A stretch of 64,000 bases of DNA, taken from the IMG/VR virus record IMGVR_UViG_3300045988_154892; one strand, given 5' to 3'. Origin of the DNA: a virus. The translations under genes were made by a program, and so were the position numbers. This document shows, one piece after another, positions 13,869-56,877 of the stretch. The notes beneath the pieces are model-generated. The model ran no database searches and was not told where the DNA came from. It saw only the letters and a list, made by a program, of their open reading frames with translations. Position 1 is the stretch's first letter. Each line of letters starts with the position of its first letter.

Positions 13869-14024
13869 AGAATAAATAATTGTCCAAGCATGAAAGACAT
13901 AAAACTTATCATGTATCGCAATACAAGCTTCCACTTGTAATAAACTGATCACTTAAGCGATGGGTTTGGATCAGCATCCTTGTTAGGAAACATCCTAAAC
14001 TGATGAAGCAACTATCGCACACAT

Positions 14025-14105
14025 GCTGGCGTGGCGGAATTGGTATACGCACTGGCTTCAAATACCAGGATCACAGATATGTGGGTTCGAGTCCCACCGT
14101 CAGTA
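14025..14105 (+). tRNA. tRNA-Leu (anticodon CAA), class II, no encoded CCA
   Basis: Hand-folded cloverleaf. Acceptor GCTGGCG/CGTCAGT has two G:U pairs. D arm GCG-GAATTGGTATA-CGC. Anticodon loop TTCAAAT (CAA at 14059-61, C31:A39 mismatch). Long variable arm. T arm GTGGG-TTCGAGT-CCCAC. Confidence 0.75.
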
Positions 14106-14109
14106 TTTA

Positions 14110-14256
14110 GCACCATGAAGTATGCAACTTTGTTTAGTTGGAAGTAAAAGAATATCGCAACACAAAAATCGTATGTTTTGTGTAACTAAATGCAGCGAAA
14201 AGGTATTATGAAAGGCTAATTCATTGGAGGTCGTGCATGGCTTCGCTTCATGGTGC
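14110..14256 (+). ncRNA. structured spacer RNA between the two tRNAs (candidate stable RNA)
   Basis: GCACCATGAAG (14110-20) pairs perfectly with CTTCATGGTGC (14246-56). The helix extends through TATGCA (14121-26) / TGCATG (14234-39). Inner helices are TTTAGTT/AACTAAA and ACACAAAA/TTTTGTGT. The closing helix starts 4-5 nt from each tRNA end. Confidence 0.45.
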
Positions 14257-14261
14257 GATCA

Positions 14262-14335
14262 GGATCATTAGTTCAGTAGGTTAGAACGCCCAGCTCATAA
14301 CTGGGAAGTCACTGGTTCAAGTCCAGTATGATCCA
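14262..14335 (+). tRNA. tRNA-Met or Ile2 (anticodon CAT), no encoded CCA
   Basis: Perfect cloverleaf. Acceptor GGATCAT/ATGATCC. D arm GTTC-AGTAGGTTA-GAAC. Anticodon arm CCCAG-CTCATAA-CTGGG. T arm ACTGG-TTCAAGT-CCAGT. A paired 1:72 argues against an initiator. Confidence 0.9.
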
Positions 14336-14425
14336 CTTTACTTTTCTGAAGGAATATAATGGATGATTGTATCATTTGACTTGATGAAAAGTTAATTTCA
14401 TAAGTTTTAAAGAAAGGAAGTAGTT

Positions 14426-18857: not shown

Positions 18858-20351
18858 TTGGCAGAAAAGAAAAAACTAACTCCATACCAAGAAGAAAAAC
18901 TAAAATGCGCCAAACAGGTTAAAGAATATAAAGTTGCTTGTGAAGCAAATATCGTTAGCATTTTTTATAAGAAACCTGAGTTAATGTATGATTACCAACT
19001 AAAATTGGAAGATTTTTCTGAAAATACTTGGAGAGTATATTGGCAAATCGCATACGATATCATTGTTAAAGAAAAGAAATCGGTTCTAGATGATATTACA
19101 GTTGGGTTATATCTAGAAAAGCATTCAAAATTAAAGCAAAAATATGATGAATATGGTGGATATGACACGATTGACAAAGCAACTGAGTATATCAAGACAA
19201 GCAATATTTCAGGATATGTAAATGAACTAAAAAAATGGGAAACTGTCATCAGAATGATTGCATCAGGGTTTCCTGTAACTGATCGTATCAAAGAATTTGT
19301 TGATATGTCATTGGATGAAATATATAAAGAATACGATGCACTTCTCAATCATATCTTTATTAACGCTGAAGAAGATGTTATGTCTTATTCTTTATCAGAT
19401 GGTATTTATGATCTCATTGAACAATTGAATGAAGGTATTGCAGTAGGATTACCATACGATAACATGCCAACACTAACAAAAGAGACGGGTGGACAGCTTC
19501 CAGGCAATATCACTTTAGTTGGTGGATTATCCAATATGGGTAAAACCACATTGACAAGAACAATGCTAATTCCAAGTGCTGTTAAATACGGTGAACGACT
19601 TGTTATTTTAGTTAACGAGGAAGGAAAAGCTAAGTGGCAGCGAGAACTTATTGTTTGGGTTGCAAATAATATTTACAAGACAGATCTGCAAAAATTTGTT
19701 GTTAGGGATGGAAAATTCTCTGACGAAGTTAAAGAACTTTTGTATAAGTGTGCAGATTGGATTGCCGAAAAATCAGAGAATAATATGTTAACTATTATTC
19801 CATTCTCGAGATATGAAACACAGAAAGCGATTAGAGTAATAAAAAAATATGCTAGTCTTGGTGTAAAGTATTTTATTCTTGATACATATAAAGCTGATGC
19901 CGGTAGTCGGTCTGATCGTATGTGGTTAGATATGCAACAGAACATGGTTGATATCTATGACACTGTAAAAGCAGAAGGTGGTAAAAACGTGCATATTACC
20001 ATCACATTTCAGTTGGCAAAATCATCTGCAAGACAAAGATTTTATAGTCAGGATAACATTGGTATGGCAAAATCAATCATTGATCCAGCAAGTACATGTC
20101 TAATGTTGCGCGATGTGTTTGAGGATGAATATACTGGTGAAAGGAATGAATTAAAAGTGTATAGGCTTGATGGTAAAAATAATAAATCTAAGATTCCAGT
20201 TAAATTGGATCATGATAAACATTATCAACTTATTTTCATTGTAAAAAATAGAGAAGGAGCTGCTAATAACATCCAAATTGTGTGCGAACATGATATGAGC
20301 AGAAATCTATTGAAAGAGGTTGGATTTACATCTGTTCCAGTTGATTTTTAA
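18858..20351 (+). CDS. dnaB: DnaB-like replicative DNA helicase
   Basis: Walker A GGLSNMGKTTL, Walker B-like FILDTYK, RecA-fold C-terminal half. Confidence 0.75.
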   Translation: MAEKKKLTPYQEEKLKCAKQVKEYKVACEANIVSIFYKKPELMYDYQLKLEDFSENTWRVYWQIAYDIIVKEKKSVLDDITVGLYLEKHSKLKQKYDEYGGYDTIDKATEYIKTSNISGYVNELKKWETVIRMIASGFPVTDRIKEFVDMSLDEIYKEYDALLNHIFINAEEDVMSYSLSDGIYDLIEQLNEGIAVGLPYDNMPTLTKETGGQLPGNITLVGGLSNMGKTTLTRTMLIPSAVKYGERLVILVNEEGKAKWQRELIVWVANNIYKTDLQKFVVRDGKFSDEVKELLYKCADWIAEKSENNMLTIIPFSRYETQKAIRVIKKYASLGVKYFILDTYKADAGSRSDRMWLDMQQNMVDIYDTVKAEGGKNVHITITFQLAKSSARQRFYSQDNIGMAKSIIDPASTCLMLRDVFEDEYTGERNELKVYRLDGKNNKSKIPVKLDHDKHYQLIFIVKNREGAANNIQIVCEHDMSRNLLKEVGFTSVPVDF

Positions 20352-45586: not shown

Positions 45587-45757
45587 ATGAGTGTACTTTA
45601 TGTGGTACTTGGAGCAGTTCTTGGGATTGGGTTTTGCACAACTGTAATGTCGTTGTGTAAAATTTCCAAGAGTGCTGATGAAGAATTGGAGCAAATGAAT
45701 AACTGCTGCAATTACACTTGGAAGAAAGAAGAAATTCATGAGGAGGTGGAGAAATGA
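45587..45757 (+). CDS. small TM protein (56 aa)
   Basis: ATG 45587 lies 9 nt after AGGAGG (MSVLYVVLGAVLGIGFCTTVMSL...). The stop overlaps the nrdD ATG (ATGA). Below the track cutoff. Confidence 0.5.
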   Translation: MSVLYVVLGAVLGIGFCTTVMSLCKISKSADEELEQMNNCCNYTWKKEEIHEEVEK

Positions 45758-47916
45758 GAGTAGTAAAGAAAGATGGAACAATTGAAGAATATCAAGAGCA
45801 AAAAATCATTGATGCTTGCAATAAAGCTGCAAGAAGAGCAATGGTTGAACTAAGTAATCAAGACTATGAAAAAATCCTGAATGATGTTTGGGAAGAAATC
45901 GAAGAAAACTACGATGATGATACAAGCATCGAAATTTATGATATGCATAATATCGTCGAAGCTGTATTGGAAGAAGACTACCCAAAAGTAGCCAAAATGT
46001 ATAAAGAATATCGGAATTACAAAAAAGATTTTGTACATATGATGGATAAAGTATATGAGCGTAGCCAGTCCATCCGCTACATCGGAGACAAGAGCAATGC
46101 CAACACAGACAGCGCCCTTGTTGCAACGAAGCGAAGCCTGATTTTCAACGAGCTGAATAGTGAATTATATAAAAAATTCTTTTTAACATATGCAGAAAAA
46201 CAAGCAGCAAAAGATGGATATATTTATATCCATGATAGGTCTGCTCGACTCGATACGATTAATTGTTGCCTTTTTAACGTAGGGGATGTTATGAAAAACG
46301 GTTTTGAAATGGGTAACATTTGGTATAATGAGCCAAACTATTTGGATACGGCTTTTGATGTTATGGGAGATATTATTTTATCAACAGCAGCGCAACAATA
46401 TGGTGGTTTTACCGTTCCAGAAGCAGATAAGATTCTTGAACCATATGCAGAAAAATCATATAGAAAATATTTTGATGAATTTAAAGACATATCTTTTTGT
46501 GTAGATTCAGAATTCGATAATGATTTACTCAATGATATAGCAGATAAATATGCAACCAATAAAGTACATCGTGACTTTGAACAAGGTTGGCAAGGAATTG
46601 AATATAAATTGAACTCGGTTTCTTCGAGTCGAGGGGATTATCCATTCGTTACGATAACTATTGGTCTTGCTACGTCTAAATTCGGCAAAATGGCTGCAAT
46701 TACGCTTCTTAATGTACATAAGGACGGACAGGGTAAAAAAGGATTTAAACGTCCTGTATTGTTCCCTAAAATCGTATTTCTATATGACAAAGAATTGCAT
46801 GGTGATGGATCGGATAAATATCCGAGTGCAGATGTGTTTAATGCAGGAATTGATTGCAGCGCAAAAACTATGTATCCGGATTGGTTATCTTTAACTGGCG
46901 ATGGATATGTAGCAGAAATGTATAAAAAATATAAAAAAGTGGTTAGTCCTATGGGGTGTAGGGCTTTTCTTAGTCCATGGTATGAACGTGGTGGTATGCA
47001 TCCAGCAGATGAAAATGATACACCAATTTTTAAAGGAAGATTTAATCTTGGGGTTGTTTCCTTGCATCTTCCAATGATTCTTGCAAAAGCTCGTAGAGAG
47101 TCAAAAGATTTTTATGAAGTATTAGATTACTATCTTGAACTTGTTCGTGGATTACATAAAAGAACCTATGATTACATTGGAGAGCTTCATGCCAGTGTTA
47201 ATCCGGTTGCTTTCTGTGAAGGTGGTTTTTTAGGTGGACATCTAAATCCAGATGATAAAATTAAATCTATTCTTCCTCCAATGACAATGAGTTATGGTAT
47301 CACTGCACTGAATGAACTTCAGAGGCTTTATAATGGAAAATCTATTAGAGAAGATGGGCAATTTGCCTTAGAGGTCATGCAGTATATCAATGATTACACA
47401 AACAGAATCAAGGAAGAAGACCATATTTTATATGCAATTTACGGTACGCCCGCAGAGTCACTTTGTGGTTTGCAGGTAGAGCAATTCCGTAAAATTTATG
47501 GGATTATTGAAAACGTATCCGACAAAGAATATGTAAGCAATAGTTTCCATTGCCATGTATCAGAAGATATGAATCCGATTGAAAAACAAGATAAGGAAGG
47601 AAGATTCTGGAATCTGTTTAACGGTGGGAAAATTCAATACTGTAGATATAATCTTGGCTATAACAAACAGGCAATTAAAACACTTGTACTTAGAGCAATG
47701 GATAAAGGGTTCTATGAAGGTGTAAATCTTGCAATGTGTTATTGTGAAGATTGTGGATACCAGCAAGTAGAAATGGATACTTGTCCAAAATGTGGAAGTA
47801 AAATGATTACAAAGATCGACAGAATGAACGGGTACTTAGGATTTACAAGAGTTCACGGTCAAACTCGCTATAACGAAGCAAAGAATGCAGAAATCAAGGA
47901 CAGGGTAAGCATGTAA
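45754..47916 (+). CDS. nrdD: anaerobic ribonucleoside-triphosphate reductase
   Basis: N-terminal ATP-cone VVKKDGTIEEY. C-terminal Zn site CEDCGY...CPKCGS and glycyl-radical motif RMNGYLG. Confidence 0.9.
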   Translation: MRVVKKDGTIEEYQEQKIIDACNKAARRAMVELSNQDYEKILNDVWEEIEENYDDDTSIEIYDMHNIVEAVLEEDYPKVAKMYKEYRNYKKDFVHMMDKVYERSQSIRYIGDKSNANTDSALVATKRSLIFNELNSELYKKFFLTYAEKQAAKDGYIYIHDRSARLDTINCCLFNVGDVMKNGFEMGNIWYNEPNYLDTAFDVMGDIILSTAAQQYGGFTVPEADKILEPYAEKSYRKYFDEFKDISFCVDSEFDNDLLNDIADKYATNKVHRDFEQGWQGIEYKLNSVSSSRGDYPFVTITIGLATSKFGKMAAITLLNVHKDGQGKKGFKRPVLFPKIVFLYDKELHGDGSDKYPSADVFNAGIDCSAKTMYPDWLSLTGDGYVAEMYKKYKKVVSPMGCRAFLSPWYERGGMHPADENDTPIFKGRFNLGVVSLHLPMILAKARRESKDFYEVLDYYLELVRGLHKRTYDYIGELHASVNPVAFCEGGFLGGHLNPDDKIKSILPPMTMSYGITALNELQRLYNGKSIREDGQFALEVMQYINDYTNRIKEEDHILYAIYGTPAESLCGLQVEQFRKIYGIIENVSDKEYVSNSFHCHVSEDMNPIEKQDKEGRFWNLFNGGKIQYCRYNLGYNKQAIKTLVLRAMDKGFYEGVNLAMCYCEDCGYQQVEMDTCPKCGSKMITKIDRMNGYLGFTRVHGQTRYNEAKNAEIKDRVSM

Positions 47917-51340: not shown

Positions 51341-51369
51341 TTGACATGGAGAAAATCTGAGGTTATAAT
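51341..51369 (+). promoter_or_regulatory. perfect sigma70/sigmaA consensus promoter
   Basis: TTGACA (51341-46), 17-nt spacer, TATAAT (51364-69). Begins directly after the stop codon at 51338-40. Confidence 0.7.
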
Positions 51370-51385
51370 ATCCCCAACAAGGTTT
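51355..51385 (-). repeat. copy 1 (inverted) of the TTGGGGAT-core repeat
   Basis: The minus strand reads TTGTTGGGGATATTATAACCTCAGAT. Core ATCCCCAA at 51370-77. Overlaps the -10 box. Confidence 0.55.
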
Positions 51386-51571
51386 TCTCTATGTCCCAGG
51401 GCAATCCAGTTGATCCTCAAAAGGGCAAAGTCACTGATCCCCTAGCCGTTCGCTAACAGATCACCAACCGCCCCTTTTCCGGATCATCAGCCCGGACACA
51501 AGCCCAACCATCTATAAAATCAAAATGAAGACCTTGTAACCATGAAAAATGTGGTTATGAGGTCTTTTTTT
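51376..51571 (+). ncRNA. orphan ~195-nt transcription unit (sRNA or leader; contains a 21-codon sORF 51391..51456)
   Basis: Bounded by the consensus promoter and a strong terminator. The interior is visibly GC-richer than its flanks. No SD precedes ATG 51391. Confidence 0.5.
51529..51571. terminator. strong, probably bidirectional, rho-independent terminator
   Basis: AGACCTTGTAACCA (51529-42) pairs with TGGTTATGAGGTCT (51552-65): 14 bp including 2 G:U, 9-nt loop, then T7. The reverse complement is followed by CATTTTGATTTT. Confidence 0.75.
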
Positions 51572-51614
51572 ATATTAATAGCAAATTATGCACAGATAAA
51601 AAGGCTTAAATACT

Positions 51615-51645
51615 GGGTTTTGGGGATGTGCAATTTTGAAATTTC
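51615..51645 (+). repeat. copy 2 of the TTGGGGAT-core repeat
   Basis: TTTTGGGGATGTGCAATT at 51618-35, which is 17/18 identical to copy 3. Core at 51620-27. Confidence 0.65.
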
Positions 51646-51707
51646 CCGATGAAACTGGGATTTCATCTGCTTTTATCTATCCCATATCCATTTCTCACCT
51701 GCCCTCT

Positions 51708-51848
51708 TCAAACATAGACTAAACCTTCCAGTCGGAAAAGTTTATACGAAATATATGTCAAAATATCTATTAAATATTCTATAGTCATATCAGCGGCAGA
51801 ACCAACAGTTTTGCCCTTTTTAGGCTCAAGGAGGTTGCCTTGAAACAT
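51708..51848 (-). CDS. 46-codon sORF whose 5' end is homologous to sORF 51391
   Basis: Minus-strand ATG at 51848: MFQGNLLEPKKGKTVGSAADMTIEYLIDILTYISYKLFRLEGLVYV*. The first ~16 codons align with MSQGNPVDPQKGKVTD, with synonymous differences. Confidence 0.3.
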   Translation of the reverse strand: MFQGNLLEPKKGKTVGSAADMTIEYLIDILTYISYKLFRLEGLVYV

Positions 51849-51864
51849 AGTATATTTTTTACTC

Positions 51865-51895
51865 TATTTTTGGGGATGTGTAATTATAGATATTA
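51865..51895 (+). repeat. copy 3 of the TTGGGGAT-core repeat (candidate tnsA-proximal transposon terminus)
   Basis: TTTTGGGGATGTGTAATT at 51868-85, core at 51870-77. The reverse complement contains TATAAT. Confidence 0.6.
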
Positions 51896-51945
51896 AAAAG
51901 TCTGGGAACCCGCATAAACACTGGATTCTTGATTTCCCAGATTTT

Positions 51946-52044
51946 CCCAAAAACAACAGGATTTGGGTACTTATTCTTACACACGCCCAAAAACAAGCAT
52001 TTTTGGGTACTTTTCGAAACACACATAATTCATTTTTGGGTAAC
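51946..52044 (+). repeat. three direct TnsB-binding-site-like repeats upstream of tnsA
   Basis: CCCAAAAACAACAGGATTTGGGTAC (51946-70), CCCAAAAACAAGCATTTTTGGGTAC (51986-52010), CATAATTCATTTTTGGGTAAC (52024-44). TTTGGGTA starts at 51962, 52002 and 52035. Confidence 0.55.
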
Positions 52045-52077
52045 TTTTTCGACACATAAAATCAAAGGAGGTACACT

Positions 52078-52422
52078 ATGTACAAGAAAAACTACAAAGG
52101 ACGCTGTGAGAAAAAGTCTCTTTCTAAATGTGACACGATCTGCCGATGCTATAGCACCATCCAATCTGTTTATGCAGACAAACTGGAAACCGATCCATCT
52201 GTTCAATCCTTTCAATGTAACACGCCACTCGAAGATGAAGACTACACAACAGACTTCCTTATTACACGACAGGACGGCACGCAATATGTCCGAGAGTGTG
52301 TAGAACGAAGTCATCTGACCAGGCCCAAGCCACTTACAATCAAACTTCTGGACACATCACGTTCCTACTGGCTTGCCCATAACGTTCAAGATTGGGGGAT
52401 TGTAACAGATGCAGAAAGCTGA
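52078..52422 (+). CDS. tnsA: short TnsA-like protein (N-terminal nuclease fold only, catalytic residues apparently substituted)
   Basis: AAGGAGG SD upstream. STIQSVYADKLETDPSVQSF..TPL, YTTDFLI and SYW....WGIVTDAE align with Tn7 TnsA SDLE...FPL, STDFLV and RYW...WFIFTDKE (alignment from memory). 114 aa. Confidence 0.6.
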   Translation: MYKKNYKGRCEKKSLSKCDTICRCYSTIQSVYADKLETDPSVQSFQCNTPLEDEDYTTDFLITRQDGTQYVRECVERSHLTRPKPLTIKLLDTSRSYWLAHNVQDWGIVTDAES

Positions 52423-54142
52423 TATAGCCTATATCAATAACACGTTCTACAGAATTTTAAAGACATCAGATAACCAGACCCTTGTAATTGACTGTCTCCA
52501 TCCGAAAATGCCATTCTGGACGATCAGAACGCAATATACCCCATTGCCAGAGAAGCAATTATATGATGTTCTAAACATCACACCACCAGATGTGAAAGAC
52601 CTTACATCTGATCAGATGCGCATTGCACATGAGCGGTACACACTGATTGCACCAATTTTATACCACTTAGGAGAAAGCACAGCAACTGCAAACATCATCT
52701 CTTCCATCTCAGAAGAGCATAACATTAGTAAGCAGACCATCCGCCGCTATCTATATCAATATCTAATCTTTCAGACCATCACTGTACTTGCACCAAAAGT
52801 TCATACGAAAGAAAAGGTGCTGACTAAAGATGAGAAGAACATGAGATGGGCATTGAATAAGTTCTTCTATACACGCAGACAAAACAGTCTTGTGACAGCA
52901 TATGAGATGATGTTAAAAGAAAAGTATTGTGACAGCATGGGACAGCTACTATCCGATCATCCATCCTTTTATCAGTTCCGATACTTTTACCGGAAAACTA
53001 AGAAGCTCCAAACTTATTATATTTCCAGAGATGGACTGTCAAATTACCAGAGGAACAATCGTCCCTTGCTAGGAGATGGTATCCGTGAGTTCGCAACCAA
53101 TATCGGTACTGGTATGTTTGATTCCACCGTATGTGACATTTACCTTATTGACGAAACCGGTACCTTAAAAGGTCGTCCGATCCTAACCACTTGCATTGAT
53201 GCTTACAGCAGTATGTGTTATGGCTATGTTCTCTCATGGAATAACGATACAAAGAGTTTATGCCATCTGCTCCAAAATATACTTACCGACAAAACAGAAT
53301 GGTGTAGAAAGTTTGGTATCCCATTAGACAAATCCCAGTGGAACGTGCAAGAGTTACCGGGCATCTTTATCACTGATATGGGACGGGAATACACATCAGA
53401 ATCCTTTGCACAGATCACAGAAACAGGCGTGACTATGGTAAATCTTCCACCATACAGACCAGAGTTGAAAGGTGCTGTAGAGAAATTCTTTGACATCATT
53501 CAATCCATGTATAAACCACTTCTCAAGGGTAAAGGTGTGATTGATCCGGACTTCCAGGAACGAGGTGCAAGAGATTACAGATTAGATGCTTGCTTGACAA
53601 TGTTTGATTTTGAGAAGATCATCTTACGCTGTATCATTTACTATAACAGTCAACGGCTCATAGAACGATTCCCTTACACACAATCTATGATTCATGATGG
53701 AGTAAAGCCATATGCAGCCAGTTTATGGGAATGGGGAAGACGGCAACCAGGCGCAAATTTAATTTCATTCCCGCATGATACCGCGAAAATAATCCTATAT
53801 CTGCTCCCACGTACCATTGGGACATTCACTAGGCGTGGTCTAGTGGTAAAAGGGATGCGGTATAAACGGGATGATTGCGCCGAAAGATTCCTGCAAGGTG
53901 GAGATGTTAAGGTTGCTTACGATCCAGATGATGTATCTGTAGTATGGACAGTAGAGAAGGGCGAGTTTATTCCTTTTGAATTGGTTGAAAGCAGATATAA
54001 GAATAGAAAATTGGATGAAGTAGAGCAGATCAAAGAACAGAGCAAAACAACACTACGTTCTGAACAAATCAATGCAAGACAGGCGAAAATTAATTTGATG
54101 AATGAGATCGAGTTGATTGCTAGGGGAGGAGTTAAAAGATGA
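52409..54142 (+). CDS. tnsB: TnsB-like DDE transposase
   Basis: HTH ISKQTIRRYLYQY. DDE candidates CDIYLID, ITDMGREYTS and YRPELKGAVEKFF. Mu-transposase-type C-terminal barrel GLVVKGMRYKRD. Confidence 0.85.
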   Translation: MQKADIAYINNTFYRILKTSDNQTLVIDCLHPKMPFWTIRTQYTPLPEKQLYDVLNITPPDVKDLTSDQMRIAHERYTLIAPILYHLGESTATANIISSISEEHNISKQTIRRYLYQYLIFQTITVLAPKVHTKEKVLTKDEKNMRWALNKFFYTRRQNSLVTAYEMMLKEKYCDSMGQLLSDHPSFYQFRYFYRKTKKLQTYYISRDGLSNYQRNNRPLLGDGIREFATNIGTGMFDSTVCDIYLIDETGTLKGRPILTTCIDAYSSMCYGYVLSWNNDTKSLCHLLQNILTDKTEWCRKFGIPLDKSQWNVQELPGIFITDMGREYTSESFAQITETGVTMVNLPPYRPELKGAVEKFFDIIQSMYKPLLKGKGVIDPDFQERGARDYRLDACLTMFDFEKIILRCIIYYNSQRLIERFPYTQSMIHDGVKPYAASLWEWGRRQPGANLISFPHDTAKIILYLLPRTIGTFTRRGLVVKGMRYKRDDCAERFLQGGDVKVAYDPDDVSVVWTVEKGEFIPFELVESRYKNRKLDEVEQIKEQSKTTLRSEQINARQAKINLMNEIELIARGGVKR

Positions 54143-55347
54143 ACGGTAAATTACTTTCACAATTGCCTGATTTTTTATGTGAAAACGAATTAGTAGAACG
54201 ACTGAAGATATTACCAAACTATAATATAAACATTGCCAATGAAACAATACCAACTCGTCTTCTTGCGTTATCAGAATTATATGATATTTATATTCCATCA
54301 CAATTATCTGTTGATGTATATAATAAATTGTATATGGCATTACTCAGATCGATTAAGAAAAAAGAAAATGATATGATGGTAAAACAGCAAAGAATCGAAA
54401 ATACAACAAACACCATACAAACGTATAATGGTATTATAGGTGGTGCTGATTCGTTTACAATCATTGGAGTTTCTGGCATAGGGAAGAGTAGTGCTATTAC
54501 CAGAGCGATCTCATTGATTTTCGGAAATCATTTTATCGAAACAACAGACCCATATCAACGAATTGCTCCTTTTATACTTGTGCAATGCCCATTTGACTCT
54601 TCTGTAAAAAGTCTATTGTTAGAAATCGTTCGTATTCTTGATGCTACATTGGATGGAGATTATTTACAGATAGCACAACGGTATACGACGGATAGACTAA
54701 TCGGTTTTGTTAGCCAAATATGTTTAAATCATGTTGGGGTACTTATTGTTGATGAGATTCAAAATGTAGTTAATAATAAAAACGGTGATAAACTTATTGG
54801 GGCATTAACACAGATTATAAATAGTAGTGGAATTAGTGTAGGCATGGTTGGAACACCAGAATGTCTACATTGGTTTGAAAGCGCACCACATCTGGAACGA
54901 AGGACAATAGGCTTGCGATATTTACGGACTGATTATGATGATGATTTTATACATTTTTGCAAAAATCTATTAAAATTTCAATATGTGCAACAATACACAG
55001 AACCATCAGAAAAATTTATAAATTGGTTGTATGCTCATTCAAACGGAGTGACATCAACTGTTGTATCATTATTTTATAGAGCACAAGAATTAGCCATTAT
55101 GAGTAACACAGAGAAATTAAGTATTGATATTTTTAATGCGTCATACAATGGGCTGATGTCTATGCAAGTAGAAAAAGTGCAAAAGAAAAATAGTCAAACA
55201 GTCAATAAATCACATAAAGAAATAACAATTCATCATTCGAATGGTGTTAATATTGCTGACTTATACAATTATTCACAATCTAATAACTATGATCTCTTAA
55301 CTCTTATCAAAAATACTTTTACTGTTGAAGAGGTGGAAATATGTTAA
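54139..55347 (+). CDS. tnsC: TnsC/TniB-like AAA+ ATPase
   Basis: Walker A GVSGIGKSS, Walker B LIVDEIQN. 4-nt overlap with tnsB. Confidence 0.85.
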   Translation: MNGKLLSQLPDFLCENELVERLKILPNYNINIANETIPTRLLALSELYDIYIPSQLSVDVYNKLYMALLRSIKKKENDMMVKQQRIENTTNTIQTYNGIIGGADSFTIIGVSGIGKSSAITRAISLIFGNHFIETTDPYQRIAPFILVQCPFDSSVKSLLLEIVRILDATLDGDYLQIAQRYTTDRLIGFVSQICLNHVGVLIVDEIQNVVNNKNGDKLIGALTQIINSSGISVGMVGTPECLHWFESAPHLERRTIGLRYLRTDYDDDFIHFCKNLLKFQYVQQYTEPSEKFINWLYAHSNGVTSTVVSLFYRAQELAIMSNTEKLSIDIFNASYNGLMSMQVEKVQKKNSQTVNKSHKEITIHHSNGVNIADLYNYSQSNNYDLLTLIKNTFTVEEVEIC

Positions 55348-56825
55348 ATTATTTTCCTAAAATATATGACTATGAATTGTTCTATAGCATATATTCAAGA
55401 TTGAAACAAGATATAAATGTACAGAGCAATCAATCTTTTAAAGAAATCGTGTTTAAACGACCGAATGAATACATCGAAATATTTTATATAAACGAACCAA
55501 GTGACATACTACATTCTTTTATGTCAAAAAATTATATTATTAATGACTTATACTATAACCATACTATGTTTTTTTACTGGTCTGTATTTCTAAACGAATC
55601 GGATAAAGAAAATGCGTTGAGAAAGCTCATATCAAATGACAAAAGTTTTTTAGAATACCTTTCCCCAAGACCAAAACATAAACATCAAAAAATATTTCTA
55701 AAATATTGTCCATTATGTGCAAAAGAAAATCGAGAGCAATATCATGAAACATATTGGAATGCTTTCCATCAAATTCCAGAAATTAATGTTTGTGTAATTC
55801 ATGGATGTAAACTCAAAGATTCATCGGTTCATGTTAACAATTCAAGAATAATAAATTTTCTAACGGCTGAAAATTGCATTAATGATGATTATTCATATGA
55901 TATGGGAACCATCGGTGAAATCAAGGCTGCAAAATACCTATATCAATTGGTAGTAAGAAAACAGAGTCTTAAGAACGGTATTACGATGTTTGACGTATTT
56001 TACAGGAAGTTAATTCAAAAGAAATATATCAATCAGCTTTCATGGCTCCAACACAAGTCGGTATTTTTAAATAATTTTAAACAATATTTATCTGACAATA
56101 ACATAAAGGAAGCTTGTCAAATAAAAGCAATGAGTAATATATTCTTAAATAAAGCGAATCCACTTAGAACAATTCATATATTATTATTTTTAGATATACA
56201 AATATCTGATATTTTTGTATGCAAAACGGCGAAACAAATTGATTTGGAATTAATTGAAAGAATTCGATCAGAGTATACAAAAGATAACGGTATAAACAAA
56301 CTTGCGAAGCAATATCATATTTTACCTTGTAATGTAAGTAAAATAATTAACGGTCAATATGAAGTTGAAAAACAAAAATTAATAAGCCAAAATTATGCAC
56401 ATAGCAGCAGTAGGAATATACCGCCTAAAGGAAAGAGGCATTCTGAATTAGATAAAAAGTATTATCCTAAAATTGAATATTATATTGACTTATATTTTAA
56501 GAATTCTGACAAAGTTAGAAGATTAACTGTAGGAGGATTTAATGTTTTCATGCAACAAATTTGTCAGGACATCAGAAGAAATGATTTTTATTATATGCCA
56601 CAATGCTATAAGTATATTAAAACAAAAGAAAAACCAATAGAGGATTATTGGGTCGATAAAATAAAATATATTGTCGATCAAATTGACAGCGATTATATTT
56701 CATATAACGAATTAAAGGGTATGGTACACATAATAGAAAAAAATATGATAAAAGCTATGGATATACTACAATACAGATATCCTGAAACGTACCTAAAAAT
56801 ACAGAAAAATAATAAAAAAGCGTAA
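55341..56825 (+). CDS. tniQ: TniQ/TnsD-like target selector
   Basis: N-terminal TniQ motif YELFYSIYSRL. Zn module CPLCAKE..(19 aa)..CVIHGC. HTH-like INKLAKQYHILPCNVSKI. 494 aa, which is TnsD-size. Confidence 0.8.
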   Translation: MLNYFPKIYDYELFYSIYSRLKQDINVQSNQSFKEIVFKRPNEYIEIFYINEPSDILHSFMSKNYIINDLYYNHTMFFYWSVFLNESDKENALRKLISNDKSFLEYLSPRPKHKHQKIFLKYCPLCAKENREQYHETYWNAFHQIPEINVCVIHGCKLKDSSVHVNNSRIINFLTAENCINDDYSYDMGTIGEIKAAKYLYQLVVRKQSLKNGITMFDVFYRKLIQKKYINQLSWLQHKSVFLNNFKQYLSDNNIKEACQIKAMSNIFLNKANPLRTIHILLFLDIQISDIFVCKTAKQIDLELIERIRSEYTKDNGINKLAKQYHILPCNVSKIINGQYEVEKQKLISQNYAHSSSRNIPPKGKRHSELDKKYYPKIEYYIDLYFKNSDKVRRLTVGGFNVFMQQICQDIRRNDFYYMPQCYKYIKTKEKPIEDYWVDKIKYIVDQIDSDYISYNELKGMVHIIEKNMIKAMDILQYRYPETYLKIQKNNKKA

Positions 56826-56828
56826 AAA

Positions 56829-56877
56829 ATGGGGAATACCAAAATTAATTGATATTCCCCATAAAATTATTGCATCA
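56829..56877. repeat. inverted repeat / candidate distal transposon end
   Basis: ATGGGGAATA (56829-38) and TATTCCCCAT (56853-62) form a perfect 10-bp IR with a 14-nt spacer. The reverse complement reads TGCAATAATTTTATGGGGAATATCAATTAATTTTGGTATTCC, resembling the tnsA-side repeats. Confidence 0.45.

Follow-up and report, generated by a model that had tools for sequence, protein, structure and literature searches.

Type V-K CRISPR-associated transposons (CASTs) and Tn5053/Tn402 lack TnsA and form cointegrates, and Tn7 itself, when supplied with a catalytically dead TnsA, reportedly became replicative and gave cointegrate products in work by May and Craig in 1996. The TnsA-less branches of the Tn7 family have been predicted to be replicative, in a study which states that no Tn7-like element had been identified in viruses (Benler et al. 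2021, PMC8649781), and one-ended 'telomeric' Tn7-like transposons with an inactive TnsA have been described (Hsieh et al. 2024, bioRxiv 10.1101/2024.11.13.623437). We found no description in the literature of a phage that lysogenises by a Tn7-type cointegrate. Here, we analysed a stretch of viral DNA of 64,000 nucleotides (IMG/VR record IMGVR_UViG_3300045988_154892; hereafter the window), in which four Tn7-type genes, tnsA, tnsB, tnsC and tniQ (tnsABCQ), span positions 52078-56825 directly downstream of a 456-bp unit that we call U. Comparison with related phages, prophages and bacterial loci makes it likely that tnsABCQ together with U form the integration (lysogeny) module of a temperate gut phage of ~205-216 kb, which inserts its whole genome at rlmH of its host. 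The individual proteins would play the same roles as their homologues in Tn7.

The integrated state was recognised in four assemblies in which phage and host DNA are joined. The left junction lies on a 971-kb contig (L415; ERZ28757994 contig_345) that was matched by the exact TnsA sequence. Its upstream genes are bacterial (FtsK, PyrK-like, GltD-like and RlmH) and its downstream genes are tnsB, tnsC, tniQ, the lysin and tail genes; at the junction itself, the stop codon of rlmH is followed by 33 nt ending in ...GATGCGTG and then by TGTCCCAGGG.... Right junctions were found on three contigs of 768, 678 and 332 kb (L424, L427 and L453, respectively), matched by exact HPr-like and NrdG-like phage proteins. 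There, the order is dUTPase-HPr-SH3 gene-X-full U, where X is the phage-side flank of U; the sequence continues as ...GAAACA|GCGTGAAATGCG into a PNPOx-like gene, the terminus of U at the host flank reading ACA|GCGTG in all three, and the host genes past the junction are the PNPOx-like gene, CobW ... YabP, YqfD and PhoH. Empty sites (L429-L446), obtained by look-ups of near-identical RlmH, contain RlmH, 29 nt and then the same PNPOx-like gene with the same neighbours. Their sequence, ...TGATATCATGCGTGAAATGCGG..., has a single GCGTG, whereas the prophage has GCGTG on both outer sides: a 5-bp target duplication surrounds the whole prophage. All four lysogen junctions are at one site, between rlmH and the PNPOx-like gene.

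U is present once in the free genome (X-U-Y, where Y is the leader between U and tnsA) and once at each junction of the prophage, so that the combined structure is host-GCGTG|U-Y-tnsABCQ-phage-SH3 gene-X-U|GCGTG-host. One copy of U in the free form and two in the integrated form are the signature of a cointegrate, i.e. of replicon fusion by transposition of U. Since these junctions place the whole ~210-kb phage downstream of rlmH, the attachment site is in the host and not in the phage. An initial annotation of the window had proposed either a phage-encoded attachment site or a phage serving as vehicle for a transposon; the second idea pointed in the right direction, but the first did not hold, and the module is better described as lysogeny machinery. 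It had also suggested that relatives be used to define an empty site, exact ends and a 5-bp target-site duplication for a ~5-kb segment. None of these was found for that segment; the duplication exists around the whole phage instead. The first ATG of the PNPOx-like host gene is separated by integration from the rest of the gene (L424 11354-11380 versus L429 4510), because the duplicated GCGTG spans codons 1-3. Translation of the PNPOx-like protein could then start at an in-frame ATG three codons later or at a TTG inside the end of U.

U (51392-51847, + strand) resembles a mini-transposon. It reads 5'-TGT...ACA-3' and is bounded by inward-facing, imperfect inverted arms; the tns genes are not part of it but follow its ACA terminus on the right. 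Repeat finding detected the arms as an imperfect 41-nt inverted repeat (51389-51429 and 51810-51850). The (+) arm (51392-51430; TGTCCCAGGGCAATCCAGTTGATCCTCAAAAGGGCAAAG) contains two GGCAA-type sub-sites 14 nt apart, is the end beside the host target gene and is presumed to be a TnsB-binding end; the (-) arm (51809-51847, - strand) is its inverted copy, ends in ...GAAACA and forms the right terminus of U. In motif scans the arms follow the pattern TGT-N4-6-GGCAA-N14-AAAAGGGCAAA, with two GGCAA-type sub-sites per arm. The limits of U are precise on both sides, as the similarity to host-flanked copies begins at 51392 (L415 and L412) and similarity ends at 51847 (L424, L427, L453 and L257). A further transposon end was sought in the window and its relatives by repeat finding, by fuzzy motif scans, by blastn-short with the arms and by nhmmer with the whole intergenic region, the search also covering patterns of the type 'ACA + 5 bp left of TGT', and none was found within -51 kb/+17 kb of the module, including the region downstream of tniQ. 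When IMG/VR was scanned twice with patterns for a third arm, most of the matches listed were chance hits, and the second scan revealed the solo copies of U that are described below. The idea that the whole phage is a Tn7 element with outward-facing ends was ruled out, as both arms face inward. Likewise, U was rejected as a genome terminus or telomere: the many contigs that end in or near U do so at scattered positions or 53-56 nt inside it, which agrees with assembly breaks at a repeat or variable region and not with physical ends. Several assemblies stop at this distance inside U, whichever side they enter from, and in L453 the place is taken by an N gap; such breaks are what a repeat occurring in two contexts would give at k=55. 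One contig with the length of a single phage genome (L417; GCA_048511375.1, DBFVRG010000032.1; 210,583 bp) starts at the first base (TGT) of U.

The tns genes are fixed in these phages. In IMG/VR, at least 14 contigs (83-217 kb) encode a TnsB that is 94-98% identical to that of the window, and all of them have the same gene order: dUTPase, small genes, SH3-domain gene, a spacer of ~740 nt, tnsABCQ and endolysin. Exact-protein look-ups in ENA, Logan and NCBI added ~30 further contigs of 200-216 kb with the order SH3 gene-X-U-Y-tnsABCQ-endolysin, and two more phage clades (TnsB 49-55% identical, flanking proteins 33-48%) have the module in the equivalent place. Neither an empty site nor end repeats around the genes were found in any of the related phages carrying the module. 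All four genes are under purifying selection, with ratios of nonsynonymous to synonymous substitution rates (dN/dS), calculated over 15-16 phage copies, of 0.08 for tnsA, 0.09 for tnsB, 0.21 for tnsC and 0.12 for tniQ. Phages related through NrdD (~70% identical) and neighbouring genes lack the tns genes; in the relative L331, the same slot, between nucleotide-metabolism genes and an Amidase_2 lysin, is occupied by an HTH_17 Xis-like gene and the gene of a 442-aa tyrosine integrase with Phage_integrase, SAM-like and arm-binding domains. To judge by this gene order, the tns genes sit in the lysogeny slot. In the window, no tyrosine or serine recombinase gene was found in the stretch that separates the nucleotide-metabolism module from the lysis module.

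With regard to the host, a public assembly collection lists the exact TnsA sequence in 959 of its indexed blocks, and the 90%-identity cluster of TnsA comprises 610 sequences, one of which (WP_349143263.1) is annotated by NCBI as Fusicatenibacter saccharivorans; the names of RlmH clusters gave no indication of the host. The host flanks of the prophage contain sporulation genes. The host is thus probably a gut member of the Lachnospiraceae, F. saccharivorans. GenBank phage records contain no homologue of the window TnsB, and among GenBank phages and plasmids there is no relative above 31%.

Bacterial relatives were collected by a scan of one genome per species. Clostridia carry the same four-gene module (TnsA of ~113 aa, TnsB 41-55% identical) directly downstream of guaA (six loci) and elsewhere of ppdK or purL. 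The layout consists of a stop codon, 5-8 nt, the TGT-arm, a terminator, the inverted arm ...ACA|TAG, TTTTTGGGA repeats and tnsA. The TGT starts 5-8 nt past the stop codon for guaA and ppdK; the purL locus (L067) has the same layout and no clear TGT at the junction. The downstream cargo of these elements is of the island type (MobA/MobL relaxase, SAM lyase, nucleases and helicases) and extends past the 10-kb flanks covered, beyond which the left ends lie. A decayed relative in an isolate chromosome, Lachnospiraceae bacterium XBB2008 (L078 9160-13022; FMVL01000004.1), has two direct copies of a U of ~290 bp in the order guaA|U_A-repeats-tnsA-truncated tnsB'-cargo gene-promoter (X')-U_B, a structure that appears, from this order, to be the same as that of the prophage cointegrate; the cargo gene is guessed to encode an EEP-type nuclease. 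In L412, the same TnsA and TnsB are combined with a different TnsC (416 aa) and TniQ (486 aa) at pflB|TGT-U, with cargo that includes an ArdC-type protein. The target differs together with TniQ, being rlmH in one case and pflB in the other. Across several loci (L012, L412 and L457-L464), the same TnsA and TnsB (97-99% identical) occur with TnsC proteins of 402, 415, 416 and 419 aa and with unrelated TniQ proteins (22% identical), which indicates that the targeting half of the operon is exchanged as a cassette.

Within the operon, the four open reading frames are co-directional (+ strand) and overlap by 14, 4 and 7 nt, exactly as given in the initial annotation. Its assignment of a Tn7-type core, made up of a TnsA-N-like protein, a DDE transposase with a Mu-type C-terminus, an AAA+ protein of the TniB/TnsC type and TniQ, is borne out by Pfam matches, although TnsA stays just under the cut-off. 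In detail, tnsA (52078-52422, +; 114 aa) matches Tn7_TnsA-like_N with an E-value of 3.5e-5 and 24.7 bits (cut-off 26.5 bits). The product of tnsB (52409-54142, +; 577 aa) matches rve (E 1.3e-6) and Mu-transpos_C (E 3.3e-5, above its cut-off), an HTH_TnsB domain was matched on proteins identical to it, and it can be aligned end to end with Tn7 TnsB at 25% identity (E 2e-44), the intact DDE triad D238/D323/E358 falling on D273/D361/E396 of the latter. TnsC (54139-55347, +; 402 aa) is an AAA+ regulator of the TniB family (AAA_22 E 5e-13, TniB E 2e-10) with the Walker A motif GVSGIGKS at residue 110 and the Walker B motif VLIVDE at residue 201. TniQ (55341-56825, +; 494 aa), a target selector of the size of TnsD, covers the full Pfam TniQ profile (E 2e-11), has an N-terminal zinc module, CPLC...C.IHGC, from residue 123, and is presumed to recognise the site at rlmH and the PNPOx-like gene. 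This zinc module and the motifs quoted in the initial annotation are all present.

The surroundings of the operon also agree with what had been described. On its + strand the window encodes a PolC-type DNA polymerase of ~1077 aa, DnaB, exonuclease V, NAD ligase, NrdD and dUTPase, and on its - strand a glucosaminidase/amidase endolysin and a tail fibre, which fits the proposed location between a replication/nucleotide block and a lysis/tail block; the window belongs to a large phage. tnsA and tnsB are indeed less AT-rich (40-44% GC) than the flanks (~33%), tnsC and tniQ having 26-34%, and at the tnsB/tnsC boundary (54139) the GC content falls from ~42% to ~30%. Between tniQ and the endolysin gene there is, as annotated, no tnsE, no cas gene and no cargo. 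This interval holds a convergent terminator (56829-56862, - strand), a hairpin with a T-run and not a transposon end, which is kept in the relatives, where two allelic forms are found directly beside the hairpin. In L001 (14363-16094; IMGVR_UViG_3300045988_152273), an insertion of ~1.5 kb is located at the 3' end of tniQ, whose match comprises residues 1-477; the insertion contains a minus-strand reading frame starting with MARQKKPVHRV..., by eye a candidate insertion-sequence transposase.

The TnsA of the window deserves separate consideration. Its 114 residues correspond to residues ~57-166 of Tn7 TnsA, and the C-terminal domain is missing. An alignment of 16 family members, in which D59, E73, C74 and R77 are invariant, was compared with Tn7 TnsA (taken from plasmid pIA/C-KLUC) by hhalign profile alignment. 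In this weak alignment, SDLE63 of Tn7 is paired with (S/D)x(I/L)(Q/M), i.e. S26-T-I-Q29 in the window; STD114F is paired with TTD59F, so that the equivalent of D114 is retained as D59; Q130-V-K132 is paired with E73-C-V75, the equivalent of K132 being V75 and hydrophobic across the family; and ERRYW...W.IFTD is paired with SRSYW...WGIVTD. A PDB sequence search with the family profile gave no TnsA match. Two of the three catalytic residues thus seem to be replaced across the family (E63 to Q/M, K132 to hydrophobic), and TnsA is likely to be nuclease-dead.

In the model that we propose for this phage, we infer the replicative route, the inactivity of TnsA and the mechanism of excision. TniQ would recognise the chromosomal site just downstream of rlmH and recruit TnsC, which would in turn recruit TnsB bound to both arms of U on the circular phage genome. 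TnsB would then join U by both of its 3' ends to the target, at positions separated by 5 bp. Since the short TnsA is probably unable to cut the 5' strands, the donor would not be released but would stay attached, and replication across U would yield the cointegrate rlmH-GCGTG|U-tnsABCQ-~210 kb phage-SH3 gene-X-U|GCGTG-host. Excision would require recombination between the two direct copies of U.

Among the other explanations, cut-and-paste transposition survives best, although we regard it as unlikely. In this case, TnsB, assisted by an active TnsA, would move a 211-kb composite transposon, [U-phage-U], out of a phage dimer or concatemer; two successive copies of U would supply its ends, the first the TGT and the second the ACA. 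The structure of the product would be identical, concatemers are made by large double-stranded DNA phages, L417 starts at the first base of U, and TnsA is under strong purifying selection with D59 and E73 invariant. On the other hand, conservation does not extend to the equivalents of E63 and K132, one would have to explain why ends separated by 210 kb are brought together rather than those only 456 bp from each other, and the lysogeny decision is normally taken before concatemers are formed.

A two-step pathway, in which U alone transposes into the rlmH site and the phage follows by Campbell-type homologous recombination between its own U and the resident one, would leave a final structure that is indistinguishable from the one observed, and we consider it even less probable than cut-and-paste. 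U does occur alone in other phages: an unrelated phage with a 2740-aa tape-measure-like protein (L257; IMGVR_UViG_3300029578_000169) has a solo U that is ~95% identical to that of the window, the similarity ending exactly at the ACA (51847) with unrelated DNA beyond, and a related phage devoid of tns genes (651324049_000002) has one downstream of nrdD/nrdG. The solo copies are located at 14258-14750 in L257 and 12102-12500 in L330, and both genomes lack tns genes. However, no solo U was present at the rlmH site in the ~33 contigs read, and the interior of U is highly variable between strains, which would hamper homologous recombination between U copies.

The proposal of the initial annotation, an autonomous, cargo-less Tn7-like transposon of ~5.3 kb (51618-56877) that inserted at an attachment site carried by the phage, with the phage serving as its vehicle, now appears very improbable. 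It was founded on the presence of all four core families and on the GC content of tnsA and tnsB, which is unlike that of the flanks, and it could draw on an 18-nt repeat at 51618 and 51868 and on a weak 22-nt direct match between 51648 and 56910. Neither of the two limits is a transposon end: position 51618 is inside U, and downstream of tniQ there is no inverted end, no arm with TnsB sites and no TGT/ACA terminus, nor anything else that resembles an end. No relative has an empty site, more than 30 related genomes and two further clades carry the genes as fixed, syntenic phage genes without end repeats, even where the clades have diverged, and the host junctions identify the whole phage as the integrating unit. 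What stands of that proposal is a site-specific Tn7-type core in a phage; the insertion of a cargo-less transposon at 51618-56877 does not.

A Mu-like phage, whose TnsB and TnsC would replicate the genome by repeated transposition into many sites, is suggested by their homology to MuA and MuB and by PHROGs, which groups the two proteins with phage transposase and transposition proteins, but it is hardly credible for a phage that has its own replisome and nucleotide-metabolism genes, free genomes contiguous over X-U-Y without variable host DNA, all four lysogen junctions at one site, and ends that face inward around 456 bp instead of outward around the genome. Equally little weight can be given to the view that the junctions arose by chimeric assembly and that the module, as a domesticated or decaying remnant, plays no part in integration, since, even though all data are metagenomic assemblies and U is a repeat that breaks assemblies, four independent assemblies (two of them, of 678 and 971 kb, of the long-read type by name) have identical junction nucleotides, the breakpoints are exactly at TGT and ACA, the 5-bp duplication is single in empty sites, and dN/dS is far below 1.

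Several points nevertheless weigh against integration by cointegrate formation as we propose it. The left junction was read in one assembly and the right junctions in others, and both were not seen together on any one contig. A solo U was seen at the rlmH site in 0 of the ~33 contigs read (18 shown). In L078, the outer 5 bp differ (ATCAC versus ATTTG), and the solo U of L257 also includes 34 nt of X (from GGTTATAAT), more than simple transposition of U would account for. When the open reading frames of the window were scanned crudely for motifs, no credible recombinase emerged, and no resolvase or res site was found that could account for excision. The sequence seen amounts to 64 kb of a ~210-kb phage plus ~20 kb in relatives, and a conventional integrase could be encoded elsewhere. 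The hhalign comparison of TnsA has a probability of 4.9% and an E-value of 0.008 and is backed by agreement at the level of motifs only, and an atypical active site is possible. Finally, the evidence consists throughout of sequence comparisons of assemblies. With these points taken into account, we still favour the cointegrate model for the phage and think it somewhat more probable than not that the model extends further, namely that phages of ~200 kb and mobilisable islands of gut Clostridia have replaced the integrase by a Tn7-type machine with a nuclease-dead TnsA, a 456-bp mini-transposon as attachment site, deliberate formation of a cointegrate and an exchangeable TniQ (rlmH, pflB, guaA, ppdK and purL).

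U and its flanks contain further conserved signals. Within U, a strong intrinsic terminator (51527-51575, +) consists of an 18-bp stem followed by a T-run, the hairpin being possibly bidirectional, and every relative examined, whether bacterial or phage, has an equivalent hairpin between its arms. X (51341-51391, +) consists of a perfect sigma-70 promoter (TTGACA-17-TATAAT, 51341-51369, 12/12 match), directly after the stop codon of the SH3 gene, and a leader of ~22 nt ending in CTCTA. A TATAAT is also found 19-27 nt upstream of CTA|TGT in the two other phage clades, in unit B of L078 and at the solo U of L330. In the prophage, X is retained beside the right-hand U (L424, L427 and L453) and absent at the left junction (L415). 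From this promoter, a GC-rich transcript of ~200 nt (51376-51575, within the region 51341-51578) is predicted to run through the (+) arm to the terminator of U, with a predicted fold of -62.6 kcal/mol (z = -6.3) and no match in Rfam; it is possibly a small regulatory RNA or merely insulates the tns operon. A patch inside U (51625-51700) differs sharply among otherwise near-identical relatives, partly owing to a ~25-nt segment that is inverted locally about the hairpin GATGAAAC...GTTTCATC, and a second variable patch, rich in indels, is located at 51470-51520. The idea that U encodes two guide-like RNAs, with the patch at 51625-51700 serving as a 'hypervariable guide', was dropped in view of this inversion, and no conserved promoter was found for a second, minus-strand RNA; a plus-strand RNA from U is possible.

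Y (51848-52077, +), the leader between U and tnsA, starts with TAGTA, has the ribosome-binding site AAGGAGG and is presumed to be the regulatory region and promoter of the tns operon. It contains TTTTGGGGATGTGTAATT (51868), inverted TTCCCA/CCCAAAAA motifs and three direct repeats of ~33-40 nt (51946-52062), and relatives have 4-12 TTTTTGGGA repeats at this position and nowhere else in those loci. Direct-repeat arrays of TTTTTGGG(A/T), in 3-12 copies and with some inverted CCCAAAA copies, are found between U and tnsA in every member of the family (51868-52062 in the window, and the same place in L015-L022 and L057-L081); one extra copy (51618) is located inside U. The repeats of Y may be operators or additional TnsB sites.

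Other observations concern the phages at large. The phage carries tRNA-Leu(CAA) and tRNA-Met(CAT) genes (window 14024-14336). NrdD/NrdG exist among the relatives as two very different pairs of alleles with ~25% identity, of 720/183 aa (as in the window, 45754-47916) and 765/164 aa, and in some relatives (L413, L416, L420, L424, L427 and L428) nrdD is interrupted by a NUMOD4/HNH_3 homing-endonuclease gene. L419 encodes, adjoining the lysis/tail region (19424-20240), an RVT_1 reverse transcriptase of 403 aa that is absent from the window and may be part of a diversity-generating retroelement or of a group II intron.

In this abundant human-gut phage, the Tn7-type system is a core function that is conserved and under selection. 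If the proposed mechanism holds, it would add a third route to lysogeny to those provided by site-specific recombinases and by Mu-type transposition, one in which the targeted transposition of a tiny element drags in a whole replicon, and would constitute a new class of lysogeny/integration module. It would also explain a class of islands downstream of housekeeping genes in Clostridia and give Tn7 systems with a dead TnsA a biological role. For engineering, the system would be a natural case in which more than 200 kb are inserted site-specifically in a single step, with a targeting subunit that can be exchanged, and for annotation it means that integrase-based prophage finders will misjudge these phages as virulent.

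In comparison with Tn7 and other TnsD/TniQ transposons, which insert at attTn7 downstream of glmS, the phage system has the same order TnsA/TnsB/TnsC/TniQ, a TnsB that is 25% identical with the same DDE triad, TGT...ACA termini, a 5-bp duplication and an insertion point tens of nt past a conserved gene, with the tns-proximal end beside that gene. It differs in that the tns genes lie outside the ends, the 'transposon' being gene-free and only 456 bp long, and in that the whole donor replicon, a 210-kb phage, is integrated. Its TnsA has 114 aa, lacks the C-terminal domain and probably two catalytic residues, and the tns-proximal region has an inverted arm and an internal terminator. Whereas an autonomous Tn7-like transposon has its genes between its ends, the phage system does not. 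With the replicative pathways of the Tn7 family it shares the predicted transfer of 3' ends only, the cointegrate, direct copies of the element at both junctions and a single 5-bp duplication. There, however, the cointegrate is an intermediate or by-product that is later resolved, whereas here it would be the end product, the prophage; in addition, the phage system keeps a TnsA-like protein, and no resolvase was identified in the window. The telomeric elements (10.1101/2024.11.13.623437) resemble it in keeping a nuclease-dead TnsA and in a non-canonical movement tied to the structure of the replicon, but they use a telomere of linear Streptomyces or cyanobacterial replicons as second boundary, are not phages and have no mini-element.

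Like Mu, the phage would integrate by means of a DDE transposase (MuA being homologous to TnsB) and an AAA+ protein (MuB being homologous to TnsC). In Mu, by contrast, the ends bound the genome, integration is near-random, replication proceeds by transposition and virions contain host DNA at the genome ends, and the window phage has none of the features that define a Mu-type phage. In staphylococci, the staphylococcal cassette chromosome mec (SCCmec) integrates at the 3' end of rlmH (orfX; see also PMC11470126); this end of rlmH is an integration hotspot in both cases, but SCC elements use Ccr serine recombinases and not transposition. Modules of a tyrosine integrase and an excisionase rely on another enzyme class and chemistry, whereas in the phage system no attP/attB core is shared with the host and the 456-bp element plus 5 bp are duplicated. 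Nevertheless, such modules occupy the same slot in related phages and, like the system described here, provide for site-specific integration beside a conserved host gene.

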